From the NCBI GenBank assembly GCA_015069135.1, contig SVJE01000002.1, positions 105,953 to 169,952 on the forward strand: a stretch of DNA of 64,000 bases. Direction: 5' to 3'. The translations under genes and the position numbers were made by a program. Below, piece by piece: positions 24,192-30,638 of the stretch (position 1 is its first letter; each line of letters starts with the position of its first letter). The DNA comes from Oscillospiraceae bacterium. Lineage in GTDB: Bacteria; Bacillota; Clostridia; UBA1212; SIG427. Below the pieces are notes generated by a model. It was not told where the DNA came from and searched no databases. It saw nothing but the letters and a program-made list of their open reading frames with translations.

Positions 24192-24248
24192 AACAGTAAT
24201 GATTACTGTTTACGGTTATAATTATAGCAGATAAAAATTCTATGTCAA
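24192..24248 (-). promoter_or_regulatory. Sigma-A promoter for perR-rbr (TTGACA-16-TATAAT on the minus strand), with a 19-bp Fur/PerR-box-like palindrome AACAGTAATGATTACTGTT just downstream of the -10 element
   Basis: Reverse complement of 24216-24248 reads TTGACAtagaatttttatctgcTATAAT. The palindrome spans 24192-24210. Confidence 0.55.
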
Positions 24249-24305: not shown

Positions 24306-24385
24306 ACAGGGTATTTATCATAAATAAATAGACGAATATAGCTCTTGATGTTAAATGAAAAGATATGATAGTCTTTGGATTGTAA

Positions 24386-24612
24386 GGCAGACCTTAAAAC
24401 GGTAGGCGGTTTAGCCCTTCAGAAGAAGGAAACAATCCTTCGGAAAGGGGTGGTGCTTATGGTTACATACGAAGAGCTGTTTCTTTTAGGAACGTTGATA
24501 GTAGAAATCATTACACTGATTTTGCTGATAAAGGCAAAAAAATAAACCGCCGTCCCCAAACGTTGCGGTTTATTTTAAAAACAACCAAGGGCTAACCGTC
24601 TATCGGTCTGCC
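24386..24612 (+). repeat. Copy 1 of a tandemly duplicated ~230-nt structured element bounded by complementary termini (GGCAGACC...GGTCTGCC) and containing a 28-codon ORF
   Basis: About 88% identical to copy 2, which starts 334 bp downstream. The 5' and 3' ends can form a ~25-bp helix. Confidence 0.7.
24459..24545 (+). CDS. 28-aa hydrophobic peptide MVTYEELFLLGTLIVEIITLILLIKAKK (candidate type I toxin, copy 1)
   Basis: SD-like AAAGGGGTGGTG lies 5 nt upstream of the ATG. The peptide has a TM helix plus a KAKK tail and is followed by a hairpin and T-run. Copy 2 differs mainly by synonymous changes. Confidence 0.45.
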   Translation: MVTYEELFLLGTLIVEIITLILLIKAKK

Positions 24613-24632
24613 TTATCTCTGCTGATATTCTA
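24546..24632 (-). ncRNA. Candidate antisense RNA (antitoxin, copy 1): minus-strand promoter TTGACA(24651-24656)-18-TAGAAT(24627-24632), ending at the shared bidirectional terminator 24546-24578
   Basis: Near-consensus promoter reading convergently into the 3' end of the peptide transcript. The terminator hairpin is followed by a T-run on the minus strand. Confidence 0.35.
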
Positions 24633-24719
24633 TACCAATAATAATCATTATGTCAACAAATCACAAGACATTTACCAACCTTGCAGTAGCTTAAATTACG
24701 GTGATAAACTTTACTTGTA

Positions 24720-24951
24720 GGCAGACCCTGAAACGGTAGGAGGTTTAGCCCTCTTGAAGAAGGAAACCATCCTTCGGAAAGGGGGTGGTGCTTATGGTTA
24801 CATACGAAGAATTGTTTCTTTTAGGAACATTAATAGTAGAAATAATTACACTAGTTTTGTTTATAAAGACAAAAAAATAAACCGCCGTCCCCAAACGTCG
24901 CGGTTTATTTCTTAAACCAAAACAAGAGGGCTAACCGTCTATCGGTCTGCC
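24720..24951 (+). repeat. Copy 2 of the structured element
   Basis: Aligns end to end with copy 1. It shows a compensatory change in the 5'/3' closing helix (GCCCTT/AAGGGC in copy 1, GCCCTC/GAGGGC in copy 2). Confidence 0.7.
24794..24880 (+). CDS. 28-aa hydrophobic peptide MVTYEELFLLGTLIVEIITLVLFIKTKK (candidate type I toxin, copy 2)
   Basis: Nine codon differences from copy 1, of which six are synonymous and three conservative. Same SD and terminator context. Confidence 0.45.
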   Translation: MVTYEELFLLGTLIVEIITLVLFIKTKK

Positions 24952-24973
24952 TTATCTCTGTTAATATTTTATA
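24881..24973 (-). ncRNA. Candidate antisense RNA (copy 2): minus-strand promoter TTGACA(24990-24995)-16-TATAAA(24968-24973), terminator 24881-24913
   Basis: Same architecture as copy 1. Confidence 0.35.
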
Positions 24974-25089
24974 TTACAAACAATATAGCTGTCAACATTG
25001 GAAAAAACTTGATTTTACTTGACCCGGATATTCATACCAATTAAAATAGGAGTAAGTTCAACAAAAATTTAAGGAGCTATCAATTTGAA

Positions 25090-25275
25090 TGGATAATACG
25101 CAATTGTAAGTTGTTTTATTAATTTATGTATAGGCTCAATGTATGCTTGGAGTAGTTTGTCTGCTCCTATGGCAAAAGAACTTAGCGCAGATTTGCCATA
25201 GCACTTATACTGGCTCTTACCGGTATAGTTTTAAGCTTTGTATATCGAAAAATGTTGAAAAATTTGAAAGTATAA
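25090..25275 (+). pseudogene. Remnant of an MFS (oxalate/formate-antiporter-like) transporter gene: an N-terminal fragment with frameshifts joined to the last ~27 codons
   Basis: Reads ...IGSMYAWSSLSAPMAKELSADLP* (an OFA-family GxxYAWS-type N-terminal motif), then an in-frame C-terminal helix AIALILALTGIVLSFVYRKMLKNLKV*. There is no intact ORF. Confidence 0.35.
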
Positions 25276-25294
25276 AAACAAGAAAGACATAATT

Positions 25295-26143
25295 ATGGAA
25301 AAGAAAACATACACTAACATACCTAAAGGTCTGATTCTATTAATGATAATTTTTGCTGTAATAGTTACAGTAATATATTTTGGTGTAATAAGAAAAGATT
25401 CTGATTTACATGGATCAGATGACACTATTTTACAGACCACAGAAAAAACAGAGGAGGGTTCAACTGTGACTCCTGATAATAACGCCACACCGGTACCGGG
25501 ACTCAGCACCGAAATTTCAAAACTCTCTATAGCAGAAAAGGCTGATGTAATTTTTCTTGTAGTGGAAGGCGGGGACAAAGCTGAGTGTACATTCAGAGCT
25601 TTTACCCGTAGCGGAGGCAGCTGGAAACAGGAATTTCAGGTGCCGGGATTTATTGGTAAAAACGGTGTGAACTATGACAGGCGTCGTGAAGGAGACTATA
25701 CAACTCCCGGTGGTGTGTACCCTATGAAAGAGTGTTTCGGAATTCTGGATGCACCGGAAGGCCTTTCCCTTGATTACACAAAGATCACCAAAGCTCATTA
25801 CTGGGACGGAGATCAGCGATCCCCTTATTACAACACTATGGTAGACTCCGGTAAAATGTTCGATGGTTGGAACAGAGGTGCCGGTGAGCACTTGATTGAG
25901 TATACAGAACAATATCGTTATTGCATGAATGTTGGATTCAATTGTGATCCGGCAGTTCCCGGTGTGGGATTTGCGATATTTTTACATTGTACCAGAGAAG
26001 GCATGAAAAACACAGGAGGATGCATAGCCATACCTGTTGAGCAGATGGTAAAATGCCTGGAGATGGCCACAGAAAACACATATATTATAATATTAAAAGA
26101 TGAGGCACACATCAGCAAAGCAGAGGAAATAATTAACAAATAA
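25295..26143 (+). CDS. Membrane-anchored secreted protein, possibly an L,D-transpeptidase (YkuD-like)
   Basis: N-terminal TM helix. The C-terminal FLHCTREGMKNTGGCIAIP resembles the LdtD H...(S/T)xGC catalytic motif. Confidence 0.4.
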   Translation: MEKKTYTNIPKGLILLMIIFAVIVTVIYFGVIRKDSDLHGSDDTILQTTEKTEEGSTVTPDNNATPVPGLSTEISKLSIAEKADVIFLVVEGGDKAECTFRAFTRSGGSWKQEFQVPGFIGKNGVNYDRRREGDYTTPGGVYPMKECFGILDAPEGLSLDYTKITKAHYWDGDQRSPYYNTMVDSGKMFDGWNRGAGEHLIEYTEQYRYCMNVGFNCDPAVPGVGFAIFLHCTREGMKNTGGCIAIPVEQMVKCLEMATENTYIIILKDEAHISKAEEIINK

Positions 26144-28420: not shown

Positions 28421-28487
28421 CAAACATAAACCCTGTGCCATAGTATATTAGTGTAGAACAAAACAAATTAACATGGAGGTATTTCCT

Positions 28488-28625
28488 ATGGGTTGCTTTA
28501 ATTTTGATTGTGAGTGGGTAATCTGGGTTATTTTAATCCTTGCCATTCTTACTATCCTGAGCAATTGCTACGATAATGGCTGTGGTTGTGGCCGTGGACG
28601 TGACAATGACTCCTGTGGCTGCTAA
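28488..28625 (+). CDS. Small (45-aa) Cys-rich membrane peptide MGCFNFDCEWVIWVILILAILTILSNCYDNGCGCGRGRDNDSCGC
   Basis: GGAGGT RBS 7 nt upstream. One TM helix plus a Cys/Gly-rich tail. Followed by an intrinsic terminator at 28636-28680. Absent from the ORF track because it is shorter than 60 aa. Confidence 0.35.
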   Translation: MGCFNFDCEWVIWVILILAILTILSNCYDNGCGCGRGRDNDSCGC

Positions 28626-28730
28626 TGATTAAAGTCACAAACACCCCCTTGGGCATCTTGCCCCTGGGGGTTTGTTTTGTTATAATAAAGATTAGTAAAT
28701 TTTACTATTCGTATAAAGGAGAGCAAATAT

Positions 28731-30638
28731 ATGAAAGACCGTTGGGAATTAAGAAAAAATGAGATAGTCTGGAAAGTTAAAGAAGGCGCTCATGTTGATA
28801 ATATTGAAATGGCAGGCCGTAAGATGGCAACTGTTGTTTATTATGGTGTGGATGAAGAAGGTAAGCTTGATTTAAAGAAAAGAGTATTTTACCCAACACT
28901 CCGTATGATTCCTAACCATACTCATGCATCATGTGCAAGAGAGTACAGCAAAGAAGAATATCTTAAGTTTGCTATCATGGGAAATGAGATTAAGGAGATG
29001 CCTTATGAAGTAAGAATTTCCGGCATGTTGACAATTTATTCCCGTGACAGCGAGAGAAAACTTAAGATTACAAGAATGATTTTCCCGTCAATTGATAAAA
29101 TGGCATATATTGAGCATACAACAGTTCAGAATATTTCAAACGATATTCAGGTTGTATCTTGTAACATGTTCAGTAACACTGTTTATGAAAGAGGTACAAA
29201 AGGCGTTTATGCTTTAGAAGTTGATACAAAGGGTCCTCAGACAGTTACTCTTAAAGTTGGTGAAACCGTATCTTACGATACAGTTTTTACAGCAAGAAAG
29301 CTTGTTGAAAAACGTCCTGAAGTTAACGGTGTTAAAGAGATGACAAGAAGAAAAGAATTTGTAAATGATATTTTTACAAAGAGTCTTGTACTTGAATCAG
29401 AAGATCCGATTCTTGACTGCGAATTTAACTTCTCTAAACTCCGTATTACAGAGAGTATTTTTGATACAATGCATGGCCCGATGCATGGTCCAGGCGGACA
29501 GGCTTATTACGCTGCTATTTGGGCTAACGATGAGGCTGAGTACGCAGCTCCTTATTTTGGATTTGCGGGTAACGACTATGCAGATGAAGCTACAATTAAT
29601 GTAATGAAGTTATACAGACCATTCATGCATCCTGAAATGTATCACATCCCTGCTTCTATTATTTCAGAGGGTAATGATATCTGGGAGGCTCCCGGCGATT
29701 TAGGTGATGCATCCATGTATCTTTATGGTATGACAAGATTCCTTTTACAGAAGGGCGATATCGAGCTTGCAAAAGAGTACTTTGATACAATTGACTGGTG
29801 TGTACGCTTTGCAGCTACAAAAGAAAATGAGCATCATGTAATTGAATCTGATGCAGATGAACTTGAGAACAGACTCCCTTCCGGTAACGCAAACTTGCTT
29901 AACAACAGTTTGACTTATGGTGGTCTTATGGGTGCTTACTACATTGCAAAAGACTTAGGCTTAGAAGAAAAAGCAGCTGAGTACAGAGATTTTGCTGCAA
30001 GAGTAAGAGAGGGTATTGAGAACCACTTCGGTGGTGAAATTGATGGTTACCATACATATATGTACTTTAACGGATGTGACGTTTTAAGATCATACATGTG
30101 TGCACCTCTTACAGTAGGTATCTACGACAGAAAAGAAGGTACAGCAAATGCATTGTTAGAAAAGCTCTGGACAGAAAATGGTCTCTTGTCAGCGCAGGAC
30201 AACGAAATGTTCTGGGATAGATCTACCTTGTATGCTCTTCGTGGTATTTTCAGCGCGGGTATGTGTGAAAAAGGTTACAAGCACCTTAACGAATACAATC
30301 ACCAGAGACTTTTAGGTGACCATGTTCCATATCCTATTGAAGCATGGCCGGAAGGAAACCAGAGACACTTGTCTGCTGAAGGTGGTCTCTATGCAAGAAT
30401 TATTATTGAAGGTATGTTTGGTATTAACCCAACAGGATTCAGAAGTTTTACTATTGCTCCTTCAATTCCCGCTCGTCAGGGTAGAATGGCTCTTCGCCGT
30501 ATTAAAGCTTTCGGTGGATGTTTCGATGTTGAAATTGAACGCTCCGGCAAGAAGTACGAAGTTAAGGTTGTAAATGCTGATGGTGTAGAACAGAACTTTA
30601 TTGTTCCGTTGGAAGGTAGTATCGAGGTTACTATTTAA
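28731..30638 (+). CDS. Uncharacterised ~635-aa cytoplasmic carbohydrate-enzyme-like protein (paralogue B of 12846..14762)
   Basis: Roughly 35 to 40% identity with paralogue A across the full length. AAGGAG RBS. Confidence 0.35.
   Translation: MKDRWELRKNEIVWKVKEGAHVDNIEMAGRKMATVVYYGVDEEGKLDLKKRVFYPTLRMIPNHTHASCAREYSKEEYLKFAIMGNEIKEMPYEVRISGMLTIYSRDSERKLKITRMIFPSIDKMAYIEHTTVQNISNDIQVVSCNMFSNTVYERGTKGVYALEVDTKGPQTVTLKVGETVSYDTVFTARKLVEKRPEVNGVKEMTRRKEFVNDIFTKSLVLESEDPILDCEFNFSKLRITESIFDTMHGPMHGPGGQAYYAAIWANDEAEYAAPYFGFAGNDYADEATINVMKLYRPFMHPEMYHIPASIISEGNDIWEAPGDLGDASMYLYGMTRFLLQKGDIELAKEYFDTIDWCVRFAATKENEHHVIESDADELENRLPSGNANLLNNSLTYGGLMGAYYIAKDLGLEEKAAEYRDFAARVREGIENHFGGEIDGYHTYMYFNGCDVLRSYMCAPLTVGIYDRKEGTANALLEKLWTENGLLSAQDNEMFWDRSTLYALRGIFSAGMCEKGYKHLNEYNHQRLLGDHVPYPIEAWPEGNQRHLSAEGGLYARIIIEGMFGINPTGFRSFTIAPSIPARQGRMALRRIKAFGGCFDVEIERSGKKYEVKVVNADGVEQNFIVPLEGSIEVTI

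Follow-up and report, generated by a model that had tools for sequence, protein, structure and literature searches.

The window (the whole stretch of DNA analysed here, 64 kb) contains two tandem units, each of which is probably a type I toxin–antitoxin module of the TxpA/BsrG lineage, and which appear to belong to a new, unannotated family within a known kind of system, the role of the encoded peptide as a toxin being putative. Each unit combines a ~29-bp helix between its 5′ and 3′ parts, a strong Shine-Dalgarno (SD) sequence, a 28-codon ORF for a hydrophobic peptide with a basic tail, a post-stop hairpin with T runs on both strands, and a minus-strand promoter scoring 11/12. The type I interpretation was put forward in an earlier, sequence-only reading of this DNA, and comparative analysis supports it, since every computational test proposed in that reading was survived.

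24345–24658: unit copy 1.
24681–24997: unit copy 2.

The two units are direct repeats with a start-to-start distance of 334–339 bp and 82–89% identity per block (88% overall), found where the sequence-only reading had placed its ~88% identical tandem copies, and no further copy occurs within the 64-kb window. A stretch of 34 nt in the 3′ arm region of copy 2 (24927–24960) is identical in copy 1. The neighbouring genes belong to the FUR and rubrerythrin families by Pfam labels on same-species contigs, in agreement with the perR-rbr neighbourhood described earlier, and a 33-aa fragment previously taken for an MFS remnant gave no match in a Pfam scan. There is no evidence for a prophage or plasmid origin of the units: blastn searches of phage and plasmid collections with the unit returned no match, and a peptide-anchored scan of viral contigs returned 0 matches. 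A gapped 16-base arm pattern run against viral contigs listed 120 matches, and these were put down to chance in view of the pattern's low information content.

The main helix of the predicted toxin mRNA is the long-range P1.

24383–24419, plus strand: 5′ strand of P1 in copy 1, consisting of the outer arm TAAGGCAGACC, a 7-nt bulge, the inner arm GGTAGGCGGTT and AGCCCTT (from the fold, inverted repeat I1 and family covariation).
24587–24615, plus strand: 3′ strand of P1 in copy 1, doubling as template for the 5′ part of the predicted antisense RNA.
24719–24756, plus strand: 5′ strand of P1 in copy 2 (from the fold and inverted repeats I5 and I7).
24923–24952, plus strand: 3′ strand of P1 in copy 2.

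The 5′/3′ complementarity reported earlier is recovered as inverted repeats I1, I5 and I7, and the MFE folds of both ~240-nt units are closed by the ~29-bp P1, with energies of −87.5 (copy 1) and −86.2 kcal/mol (copy 2); the folding check that had been suggested thus came out positive, with z = −7.4 and −6.8, respectively, relative to dinucleotide shuffles. Between the copies P1 changes from GCCCTT/AAGGGC (copy 1) to GCCCTCTTG/CAAGAGGGC (copy 2), that is, from T-A to C-G at one position, the compensatory pair already pointed out in the sequence-only reading, together with three extra pairs gained by copy 2. Alignment of whole units with MAFFT and RNAalifold missed the outer helix because it covaries and its bulge varies in length, and P1 was analysed instead by per-sequence duplex prediction, bulge-removed alignment and a non-cognate control. 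Across the family 91.5% of cells are paired, falling to at most 54% when the partner is slid, and both bases have changed in 14 of 24 pairs (89 cells), a level reached by 0 of 500 shuffles; to check the fitting step, arms were also matched with non-cognate partners, which pair at 8.5 of 13 positions as against 10.8 for cognate arms. By these comparisons the predicted helix covaries across lineages.

Paired arms of this kind could also arise if the unit were a MITE or other selfish repeat, its terminal inverted repeats mimicking an RNA helix, and the ~25-nt inverted repeats as well as the recurrence of units in several copies per genome, in tandem and in varied contexts, would suit such an element. 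However, the arms change in concert from lineage to lineage, tolerating G-U pairs, and this indicates RNA pairing rather than constant binding sites for a transposase. Conservation also takes in both promoters, beyond the inverted repeats, the ORF is under selection, and neither the sequence nor the copy alignment shows a target-site duplication where the copies begin and end. The MITE alternative, already named in the sequence-only reading, fails on these points, and its probability is close to negligible.

The elements that would produce and terminate the two transcripts flank and overlap P1.

24345–24374, plus strand: putative weak toxin promoter of copy 1, TTGATG-18-TAGTCT, with TG one base upstream of the −10 box.
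24681–24710, plus strand: putative weak toxin promoter of copy 2, TTGCAG-18-TAAACT, with TG one base upstream of the −10 box.
24533–24580, both strands: post-stop hairpin of copy 1 (inverted repeat I13, fold and family stem covariation).
24868–24917, both strands: post-stop hairpin of copy 2, its minus strand being the putative antisense terminator (inverted repeat I10 and fold).
24627–24656, minus strand: antisense promoter of copy 1, TTGACA-18-TAGAAT (consensus scan, 11/12).
24966–24995, minus strand: antisense promoter of copy 2, TTGACA-18-TAAAAT or TTGACA-16-TATAAA (11/12).
24533–24620, minus strand: predicted antisense RNA of copy 1, ~85–90 nt, its ends deduced from promoter and terminator.
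24868–24959, minus strand: predicted antisense RNA of copy 2, ~85–90 nt, its ends likewise deduced.

Both copies carry the earlier described hairpin after the ORF with T runs on either strand, its arms lying at 24539–24550/24565–24576 in copy 1 and 24874–24885/24900–24911 in copy 2. Read on the minus strand, the copy 1 hairpin resembles the intrinsic terminator of an antisense RNA, the U tract of which is templated by AAA lysine codons and the stop codon, and read on the plus strand it gives the complementary hairpin within the toxin mRNA. Its stem covaries in the family, for example as TAACC/GGTTA, TGACC/GGTCA and ACACC/GGTGT. Since this hairpin also resembles a plus-strand terminator, P1 could form only if the hairpin is read through, and no separate toxin-mRNA terminator was found downstream of P1 in the window or in loci L160 and L152.

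Of the convergent promoters, that of copy 1 is exactly as first reported, while that of copy 2, originally given with a 16-bp spacer, can also be read with one of 18 bp. The antisense promoter of the family is almost always TTGACA-17-TATAAT (mean 11.75/12) at a fixed distance from P1, with a −10 box only ~10–12 nt beyond the helix, and among the metagenome matches listed 58 of 65 loci have antisense promoters of at least 10/12, compared with 3 of 59 shuffles. The predicted antisense RNA, whose promoter and terminator are conserved at fixed positions on the opposite strand, covers the final codons of the ORF, the hairpin and the P1 3′ strand. The toxin promoters of the window were assigned by reading the sequence and aligning the copies, and were not called in a consensus promoter scan of the window; relatives have a toxin promoter in the same place, scoring 9.4/12 on average, so that weakness is the family rule. 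It is conceivable that the family is a real type I system but both window copies are silent relics, a view to which the weak toxin promoters and the decayed look of an adjacent gene lend some colour. Weak toxin promoters are nevertheless usual in the family, and in the window both ORFs, both P1 helices, both hairpins and the 11/12 antisense promoters are intact, the differences between copies are mostly synonymous or compensatory, and the locus recurs in three independent same-species metagenome contigs with nhmmer scores and coordinates unchanged, all of which make relic status very unlikely.

Translation initiation is one point at which the sequence-only reading requires correction.

24444–24455, plus strand: SD sequence of copy 1, AAAGGGGTGGTG (read from the sequence).
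24766–24789, plus strand: local hairpin of copy 2, ACCATCCTT-CGGAAA-GGGGGTGGT, holding the SD (from the fold).

A nearby CCCTTC had been proposed to sequester the SD, but in the full-length fold CCCTT belongs to the 5′ strand of P1 and is not a constitutive anti-SD. The copy 1 SD is largely unpaired, with a mean unpaired probability of 0.55 in the free mRNA and 0.27 with the 3′ arm blocked, and the copy 2 SD pairs with a local ACCAUCCUU (unpaired probability 0.14). A switch, in which binding of the antisense RNA frees CCCUU to close the SD, is predicted for copy 1 and in 7 of 29 members; most members are predicted to have a closed SD already (mean unpaired probability 0.20) and to show only a small effect of the antisense RNA on SD accessibility, and the switch is retained only as a possible minor, member-specific effect. 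An antiterminator was also considered, as the 5′ arm GGCGGUU is complementary to the hairpin left arm AACCGCC and paired with it in one shortened-mRNA fold, but this pairing is unsupported, the changes in L134 (A·C) and in L142 and L150 (U·C) being compensated only in P1 or in the hairpin.

Enclosed by P1 is the ORF of the putative toxin.

24459–24545, plus strand: putative toxin ORF of copy 1, 28 aa, MVTYEELFLLGTLIVEIITLILLIKAKK.
24794–24880, plus strand: putative toxin ORF of copy 2, 28 aa, MVTYEELFLLGTLIVEIITLVLFIKTKK.

The peptide starts with MVTYEEL and continues with a 17-residue hydrophobic core followed by KAKK or KTKK, thereby matching the pattern of the Hol_Tox family (M-x-x-[YF]-E-x-L, a single hydrophobic helix and a C-terminal basic cluster). 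Recounting of the 28-aa ORFs confirmed that nine codons differ between the copies, six synonymously and three with replacement (I21V, L23F, A26T), giving a pS of 0.36 and a pN of 0.046 for the window pair. Over the family the ORF has a pN/pS of 0.53 outside the anchored codons, and codon-position entropies of 15.6/6.8/21.6 identify the second position as the least variable. Judged by these substitution patterns, the ORF is under coding constraint. In protein databases a 56-aa extended ORF had no homologue, and exact look-ups found nothing for the extended ORFs or for 8 of 10 family peptides; NCBIfam gave only a weak sortase-signal match, taken as spurious, and PHROGs gave weak matches only.

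Relatives of the units are numerous. A peptide-anchored genome scan recovered 35 loci in MAGs of Oscillospiraceae, Acutalibacteraceae and other Clostridia, compared with an estimated ~1 expected by chance, all 35 having the same RNA layout and an ORF with hydrophobic core and basic tail; among peptide-anchored units 37 of 37 have an intact ORF, of 27–31 aa. A metagenome scan anchored on the RNA, and therefore not biased towards the peptide, yielded at least 120 loci, and among the matches listed 120 of 121 units keep a hydrophobic ORF of 17–39 aa with a strong SD (117 starting with ATG, two with GTG and one with TTG), the one other having a premature stop. The sequence-only reading had made its case depend on homologous copies keeping the ORF, as they do in both sets, with substitutions of a coding pattern. 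In two family copies the ORF has early stop codons and the RNA scaffold is kept, possibly the pattern to be expected if a toxic product is selected against. For one 31-aa member, 457 contigs are on record. The 28-aa ORFs are uncalled in annotation, one deposited family peptide is labelled ‘hypothetical protein’, and no Rfam family reaches threshold on the units, so that by these searches the family is large and abundant in human-gut and ruminant metagenomes, yet invisible to annotation.

Within the family the inner P1 and the stems of the hairpin hardly vary, and the peptides differ widely. That the RNA scaffold is better conserved than the peptide might suggest that the unit is a structured non-coding RNA or cis-regulatory leader in which the ORF is incidental. 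Flanking genes, however, vary between loci (a THF riboswitch, tRNAs and a group II intron among them), which shows that the unit is not a leader for one gene, and no Rfam family was matched at threshold. Furthermore, an intact ORF preceded by an SD is present in all but one of the listed RNA-anchored units, and the peptides retain their length, hydrophobic core and basic tail, with the least variation at the second codon position and pN/pS below 1. An incidental ORF is accordingly highly improbable.

In the sequence-only reading the peptide was not recognized as any described toxin, a statement that no longer holds. The Pfam model of the TxpA/BsrG family (PF16935, Hol_Tox, gathering score 23.3 bits) stays below threshold on the window peptides, with 14.6 bits (E = 0.031) for copy 1 and no match for copy 2, but two relatives with the same scaffold pass it at 27.9 and 26.7 bits and others score 23.2, 23.0, 21.4, 20.6, 15.2 and 14.2, the controls BsrG and TxpA reaching 34.5 and 31.3 bits. 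The Rfam model of BsrG (RF01412, gathering score 55 bits) behaves similarly, with sub-threshold scores of 27.6 (E = 6.8e-4) for copy 1 and 22.6 for copy 2, 37.5, 26.1 and 22.1 bits for relatives, and 210.4 bits for authentic bsrG; in five loci these sub-threshold matches place the SD hairpin and the ORF in the same register. In hhalign comparisons of the family with BsrG and TxpA the N-termini align, at a probability of only 23–45%. By this chain of similarity the window peptide is a divergent relative of the TxpA/BsrG family rather than an orphan.

Membership in a toxin lineage need not mean toxicity, and an alternative in which the unit encodes a small membrane peptide under cis-antisense control, serving as a regulatory or accessory membrane protein, finds precedent in the literature, where type I candidates such as YhzE-2 are non-toxic on overproduction and TxpA is non-toxic in E. 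coli. The great diversity of peptides in the RNA-defined family (17–39 aa among the matches listed) points the same way. Close relatives nevertheless reach the threshold of a Pfam model whose core members, TxpA and BsrG, are proven toxins, and we regard a non-toxic product as unlikely, though it deserves more weight than the alternatives above.

The sequence-only reading had compared the units with hok/sok, fst and txpA systems. The last of these comparisons stands, txpA/RatA and bsrG/SR4 being nearer relatives than hok/sok or fst because the RNA layout closely matches that of bsrG/SR4, in which a main helix P1, a loop contact and pairing of the antitoxin with the 3′ part of P1 have been described (PMC6562991). 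As predicted for the window loci, bsrG/SR4 of the B. subtilis prophage SPbeta has convergent mRNA and antisense RNA with overlapping 3′ ends, P1 joins the 5′ and 3′ regions of the mRNA and its 3′ strand is the antitoxin target, the SD lies in a hairpin, and the post-stop hairpin mirrors the antitoxin terminator. BsrG likewise has an M-x-x-Y-E-x-L start, one hydrophobic helix and a lysine tail, though in 38 aa rather than the 28 aa of the window toxin candidate. SR4 is reportedly 180 nt long, as opposed to the ~80–100 nt predicted for the window antitoxin. In further contrast to bsrG/SR4, the window antisense promoter abuts P1 with no separate toxin terminator following the helix, an extra long-range helix of bsrG between the 5′ region and the hairpin left arm has no compensated counterpart in the family, and the hosts are Oscillospirales-like Clostridia with no evident prophage context.

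TxpA belongs to the same Pfam family as relatives of the window peptide (31.3 bits for TxpA, up to 27.9 for relatives), its N-terminus MSTYESL resembles the MVTYEEL of the window, and in txpA/RatA, from the B. subtilis skin element, toxin mRNA and antisense RNA overlap at the 3′ end of the former, as predicted here. With 59 aa and a long C-terminal extension TxpA is nonetheless far larger, hhalign aligning only its first 11 residues at 45% probability, and in those parts of the bsrG/txpA literature that were consulted no description of a P1-type helix for txpA was found. The antisense RNA of E. faecalis EF3263 (~110 nt) is similarly short to the predicted window antisense RNA. By description, bsrE/SR5 and bsrH/as-bsrH may be set beside the window loci, since their toxins of ~30 aa are near its 28 aa and B. 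subtilis type I toxins span 28–60 aa according to a review. The mRNA of bsrE is described as folding in a strikingly similar way to bsrG mRNA, and conserved bsrG/SR4-type loci of other Bacillus species can carry BsrE/H-type toxins (PMC6562991), an exchange that parallels the many peptides on one scaffold in the window family.

Likeness to the remaining systems is less close. The fst/RNAII system (par, pAD1) shares convergent transcripts, a bidirectional terminator and a loop–loop contact with the arrangement proposed here (partly after PMC6562991), but in par direct DNA repeats make two 5′ regions complementary, whereas the window family has inverted repeats and pairing in the overlap, with the consequence that its two RNAs would start alike (GGUAGGCGGUU for the mRNA, GAUAGACGGUU for the predicted antisense RNA). 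Pfam scans gave no similarity to the Fst peptide. As in hok/sok, a 5′/3′ fold-back helix closes the full-length toxin mRNA; in hok/sok, however, the antisense RNA has the 5′ leader as its target and works by way of a coupled reading frame, and the mRNA becomes active after processing at its 3′ end (partly after PMC6562991). The window antisense RNA is predicted to target instead the 3′ strand of the helix, and the window units lack a leader ORF and come from a Gram-positive host. Type I systems of C. difficile (e.g., CD2517.1/RCd8) are of the same class, with a small membrane toxin bearing a charged C-terminus and an antisense RNA; their toxins (34–59 aa) reportedly lack sequence similarity to the B. 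subtilis families according to a review, in which respect they differ from the window family with its link to TxpA/BsrG.

The analyses above show the sequence architecture and its conservation, the covariation in P1 and in the hairpin, the coding constraint on the ORF and the kinship of the peptide; from promoters, folds and the bsrG/SR4 analogy we infer the two transcripts with their end points, the toxicity and the succession of steps. Transcription from the weak plus-strand promoter would give a toxin mRNA of ~235–250 nt with its 5′ end paired to its 3′ end in P1, enclosing a strong SD, mostly held in local structure, and the 28-codon ORF, whose product would be a membrane peptide with one helix, acidic at its N-terminus (MVTYEE) and basic in its tail. 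The near-consensus minus-strand promoter would give an antisense RNA of ~80–100 nt, its 5′ part the perfect complement of the P1 3′ strand and its 3′ part an intrinsic terminator that mirrors the post-stop hairpin. By analogy with bsrG/SR4, first contact would occur between the two complementary hairpin loops, and pairing would then spread into the P1 3′ strand, where the antisense RNA should outcompete P1 because P1 has a 7-nt bulge and conserved G-U pairs and the antisense duplex is perfect. RNase III would be able to act on the ~80-bp duplex so formed, opening of P1 would expose the mRNA 5′ end to 5′-dependent decay, and in some members, copy 1 included, the freed CCCUU may pair with the SD. 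As the 34-nt 3′ arms of both copies are identical, their antisense RNAs should cross-protect.

A bolder proposal, which we consider unlikely but worth stating, is that the RNA scaffold rather than the toxin is the conserved unit, forming a modular platform on which toxin ORFs are swapped. Its chassis may consist of the inner P1 (GGUAGGCGGUU/AACCGUCUAUC) with its fixed G-U pairs, the TAACCGCC...GCGGTTA hairpin and the abutting consensus antisense promoter. Were this true, one chassis would carry dozens of unrelated-looking peptides (17–39 aa among the matches listed), the invariant motif would have a specific role in recognition or switching that simple pairing does not account for (involving, for example, an RNase, an RNA-binding protein or folding during transcription), and P1 with the T-rich tract that follows it would make an unusual long-range toxin-mRNA terminator.

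According to a review, only few TxpA-like or Fst-like matches have been reported. The family described here represents a body of natural variation, in which many covarying P1 arms surround an invariant core and many peptides occur on one scaffold, and it would thus be useful for studying the tuning of toxin-mRNA folding and of invasion by the antisense RNA. Compact kill-switch or counter-selection parts for genetically recalcitrant gut anaerobes could also be drawn from it.

The locus at 24345-24997 is supported as a tandem pair of predicted bsrG/txpA-like type I toxin-antitoxin modules, and the type I character proposed by the sequence-only reading draws support from conserved architecture, covariation, coding constraint and kinship to TxpA/BsrG. 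As that reading had noticed, two similar tandem copies are present, and sequence comparison resolves them into direct copies of a ~315-bp unit (88% overall identity, start-to-start distance 334-339 bp), with no third copy found in the whole 64 kb window. Each copy contains, in order, a 5' segment, a Shine-Dalgarno (SD) sequence, an ORF, a hairpin, a 3' segment complementary to the 5' segment, and a minus-strand promoter, the 5' and 3' segments forming P1, the long-range main helix that joins the two ends of the toxin mRNA.

Features of the two tandem units (window positions)
24383-24419, plus strand: 5' segment (P1 5' strand), copy 1
24459-24545, plus strand: 28-codon ORF, copy 1
24587-24615, plus strand: 3' segment, complementary to 5' segment, copy 1
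24656..24627, minus strand: predicted promoter TTGACA-18-TAGAAT, copy 1 (11/12; ~10 nt past 3' segment)
24719-24756, plus strand: 5' segment (P1 5' strand), copy 2
24794-24880, plus strand: 28-codon ORF, copy 2
24923-24952, plus strand: 3' segment, complementary to 5' segment, copy 2
24995..24966, minus strand: predicted promoter TTGACA-18-TAAAAT, copy 2 (11/12; ~10 nt past 3' segment)

In both copies the SD (AAAGGGG(G)TGGTG) ends 3 nt before the ATG, its core GGGGTG lying 6 nt before, and the hairpin 3' of the stop codon combines a 12-bp stem with T runs on either strand. The claimed coding constraint holds, six of the nine codons that differ between copies being synonymous and three conservative (pS 0.36, pN 0.046). 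Among homologous loci, pN/pS of the ORF is 0.53 outside the anchored codons, and summed entropy at codon positions 1, 2 and 3 (15.6, 6.8 and 21.6) is the pattern expected of a hydrophobic coding sequence.

Protein database searches were unhelpful for peptides of 28 aa, since ORFs of this size are skipped by gene callers, and DNA was therefore scanned. A degenerate pattern covering the first nine codons, applied to one genome per GTDB species (~1 chance match estimated from its information content), located homologues with the same layout in other Clostridia genomes, namely 35 loci, every one of them from a gut or rumen MAG that carries the label Oscillospiraceae, Acutalibacteraceae, Eubacteriales or Clostridia. 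All 35 encode an ORF of 27-31 aa, hydrophobic in its core and ending in a K/R tail, no reading frame in this genome set is broken, and every full-length match has promoter, 5' arm, SD hairpin, ORF, hairpin, 3' arm and convergent promoter. Several MAGs carry 2-3 copies on separate contigs, and nhmmer found additional diverged or partial paralogues adjoining some loci. A metagenome scan free of peptide bias, anchored on the invariant RNA motifs ACGGTAGGCGGTT and AACCGTCTA 160-190 nt apart, gave at least 120 matches, mostly in human-gut assemblies. Among the matches listed there are at least 121 units and at least 67 distinct peptides, 17-39 aa long; of the 121 units, 117 have an ATG-started hydrophobic ORF with a basic tail, the others having GTG (two) or TTG (one) starts or a premature stop (one). 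Across the metagenome loci listed (L163-L282) the RNA scaffold is better conserved than the peptide. Very different peptides occur on this one scaffold, for example MEYATIITLVLIITLILIIKK and MDQMTIQLLLILLILIVVEKK (21 aa each), MCMELDVIVKLISIVCDVFKAYLAYLNFKNKQK (33 aa) and MDNLILLIIFVIVYTGYIIIAKKK (24 aa). In two paralogues the toxin ORF is cut short, ending at ATG-TAA (L135, 1850-2230, plus strand) or ATG GTT ACA TAA (L168), and P1, hairpin and consensus antisense promoter are intact. In another family member (L161, about 1132-1346) family similarity ends within the hairpin after the stop codon and gives way to unrelated sequence with its own hairpin (CACCCCAAAAGT...ACTTTTGGGGTG), which we take to be a probable insertion or rearrangement at the hairpin. 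Family members have unlike neighbours, among them a THF riboswitch, a pair of tRNAs, a glycine riboswitch match below threshold and a domain of a group II intron (L148, 6624-6728; L156, 2420-2631 and 4514-4685; L142, 1827-1905), so that the module has no fixed genomic neighbour.

The predicted 5'/3' complementarity was recovered by folding each ~240-nt unit, which closes by an end-to-end helix of ~29 bp whose outer 11 bp and inner 18 bp are parted by a 7-nt bulge on the 5' side (-87.5 and -86.2 kcal/mol; z = -7.4 and -6.8 versus dinucleotide shuffles). The compensated difference between copies is likewise present, and also makes the copy 2 helix longer. Whole-unit alignment (MAFFT and RNAalifold) detected both the hairpin and the inner helix and missed the outer helix, because the latter covaries and the bulge varies in length; duplex prediction per sequence found it in every member with differing sequences, the arms being AAGGCAGACC/GGTCTGCCTT in the window and AAGGACTATCA/TGGTAGTCCTT, GTAAGGTGTTGTC/GGCAACACCTTAC, GCGCGTCG/CGGCGCGC or AGGGCGTACC/GGTATGCCCT in other members. 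In an alignment of 23 distinct sequences with the bulge removed and one free fitting parameter per sequence, 91.5% of P1 cells hold standard pairs (35-54% with the partner slid 1-3 columns), and both-sided changes occur at 14 of 24 pairs (89 cells), matched by none of 500 shuffles. Owing to the fitted parameter, identical fitting was also run on non-cognate arm pairs from 101 distinct arm sets: of 13 positions, 10.8 are paired between cognate arms and 8.5 between non-cognate arms, with 78% and 24%, respectively, reaching at least 10. Inner P1 (GGTAGGCGGTT with AACCGTCTATC; 24401-24411 with 24594-24604 in copy 1, 24735-24745 with 24933-24943 in copy 2) is almost invariant family-wide, its two G-U pairs kept, while outer P1 covaries freely.

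Since the arms covary, they would pair inside one RNA molecule, and on this reasoning the plus-strand transcript must at least sometimes continue past the internal hairpin. That hairpin is also terminator-like on the plus strand, and no separate toxin-mRNA terminator was found downstream of P1 in the window and two relatives examined; a T-rich tract directly 3' of P1 in many members could be a by-product of the adjoining AT-rich promoter. The stem covaries (TAACC/GGTTA, TGACC/GGTCA, ACACC/GGTGT), and inner P1 and hairpin stems stay nearly constant despite completely different peptides. The nearly invariant stem sequence TAACCGCC...GCGGTTA is similar to the P1 strands; the idea that the 5' arm pairs with the left hairpin arm as an antiterminator was considered and received no support from compensation.

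The near-consensus convergent promoters reported earlier are present in both copies (11/12 each), and most loci have TTGACA-17-TATAAT as their predicted minus-strand promoter (mean 11.75/12, 28 distinct loci). This promoter is separated by 16-24 nt from the end of the conserved 3'-arm motif AACCGTCTATCGG, which puts it ~10-12 nt past P1, and among the matches listed it scores at least 10/12 in 58 of 65 metagenome loci versus 3 of 59 shuffles. The predicted plus-strand promoter is weaker (mean 9.4/12), those of the window being poor (TTGATG-18-TAGTCT and TTGCAG-18-TAAACT, each with TG one base 5' of the -10 box). Where it is consensus, the inferred start is the first paired base of P1, and the inferred antisense start is opposite the last. 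The predicted antisense RNA is 76-102 nt long, and the template of its U tract would be the stop codon together with the AAA/AAG lysine codons. One subgroup (L160, L159, L135, L133, L141, L158, L129) conserves a small hairpin, GGTGC-nnn-GCACC, directly 5' of P1, ~25 nt upstream of the 5' arm; its best toxin-promoter match is further upstream, so that its mRNA 5' end may differ.

At Rfam gathering thresholds the units have no match, the single match in the whole window being a tRNA. Searched in E-value mode, the units are most similar to BsrG (RF01412; gathering score 55), to which copy 1 aligns over the full model (27.6 bits, E = 6.8e-4), copy 2 scores 22.6 bits and relatives 37.5, 26.1 and 22.1 bits, all below 55 and always with SD hairpin and start codon in register; authentic bsrG of SPbeta scores 210 bits. 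Against Pfam Hol_Tox (PF16935, gathering score 23.3), BsrG scores 34.5, TxpA 31.3 and the copy 1 peptide 14.6, below threshold, with same-scaffold peptides 64-71% identical to copy 1 at 27.9, 23.2 and 21.4 and RNA-anchored members, among the matches listed, at 26.7, 23.0 and 20.6. Profile comparison (hhalign) aligns the N-termini, MVTYEEL with MTVYESL/MSTYESL of BsrG/TxpA, at a probability of only 23-45%. Taken together, these Rfam, Pfam and profile comparisons suggest that the TxpA/BsrG toxin family includes the peptides as a divergent branch, and the RNA is probably a distant structural relative of bsrG mRNA, outside the curated Rfam family. What has been published on bsrG/SR4 fits closely: bsrG has a main helix P1 and an SD inside a hairpin, the two RNAs first touch where the SR4 terminator loop meets a complementary bsrG RNA loop, pairing then moves into the 3' part of P1, and the duplex is cut by RNase III (PMC6562991). 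BsrE/H-type toxins are possible in bsrG/SR4-type loci of other Bacillus species (PMC6562991), a parallel to this family, in which one scaffold carries many different peptides. A search of the literature did not turn up these sequences, and reviews give only scattered TxpA-like and Fst-like matches for Clostridia outside C. difficile.

Upon the architecture, its conservation and the pairing and coding constraints, all observed, a mechanism may be proposed. Low-level toxin mRNA would fold compactly, its 5' end buried in P1 and thereby, in Firmicutes, shielded from 5'-end-dependent decay, with the SD mostly paired (mean unpaired probability 0.20). An antisense RNA transcribed from the consensus promoter would pair perfectly with the 3' arm and oust the 5' arm: its 5' segment (GAUAGACGGUU...) differs from the mRNA 5' arm (GGUAGGCGGUU...) only at the two G-U positions of P1, and since the antisense RNA matches these positions and P1 is bulged, the antisense/3'-arm duplex should be perfect and more stable, so that the 5' arm should be displaced. 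The ~80-bp antisense/mRNA duplex would be a natural RNase III substrate. In copy 1, and in 6 of 28 other units tested (7/29 in total), freed CCCUU would pair with the SD, the computed SD unpaired probability of copy 1 falling from 0.55 to 0.27 upon its release, an effect negligible in most members. Between the two window copies the 34-nt 3' arms are identical and the hairpins nearly so, and each antisense RNA should therefore act on both mRNAs.

The surroundings of the pair hold further features. A perfect 8-1-8 palindrome (ACAGTAAT-g-ATTACTGT, 24193-24209), just 3' of a minus-strand promoter (24248..24221, 12/12, TTGACA-16-TATAAT with TG), precedes FUR-family (perR-like) and rubrerythrin genes and looks like an autoregulatory operator. 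Short reading frames broken by stops occupy 25085-25282 (for example ...CIGSMYAWSSLSAPMAKELSADLP-stop), a stretch read as a deleted MFS transporter remnant by the sequence-only reading, and the 33-aa fragment there has no Pfam or PHROG match. A 282-aa ORF (25295-26143, plus strand) has a borderline YkuD (L,D-transpeptidase) domain (23.3 bits, cut-off 23.4). Two adjoining small plus-strand ORFs (28473-28625 and 28625-28762), 3' of a radical-SAM and DUF4130 gene pair, have no Pfam match; one, of 50 aa, combines a hydrophobic helix with a Cys/Gly-rich tail (...NGCGCGRGRDNDSCGC), and the second encodes 45 aa. On contigs of the same species, gene calls at this position give two genes of 45 aa.

Judged by the homologues recovered, the units belong to a family in gut and rumen Clostridia that is large and unannotated, useful and abundant and, conceptually, unsurprising.
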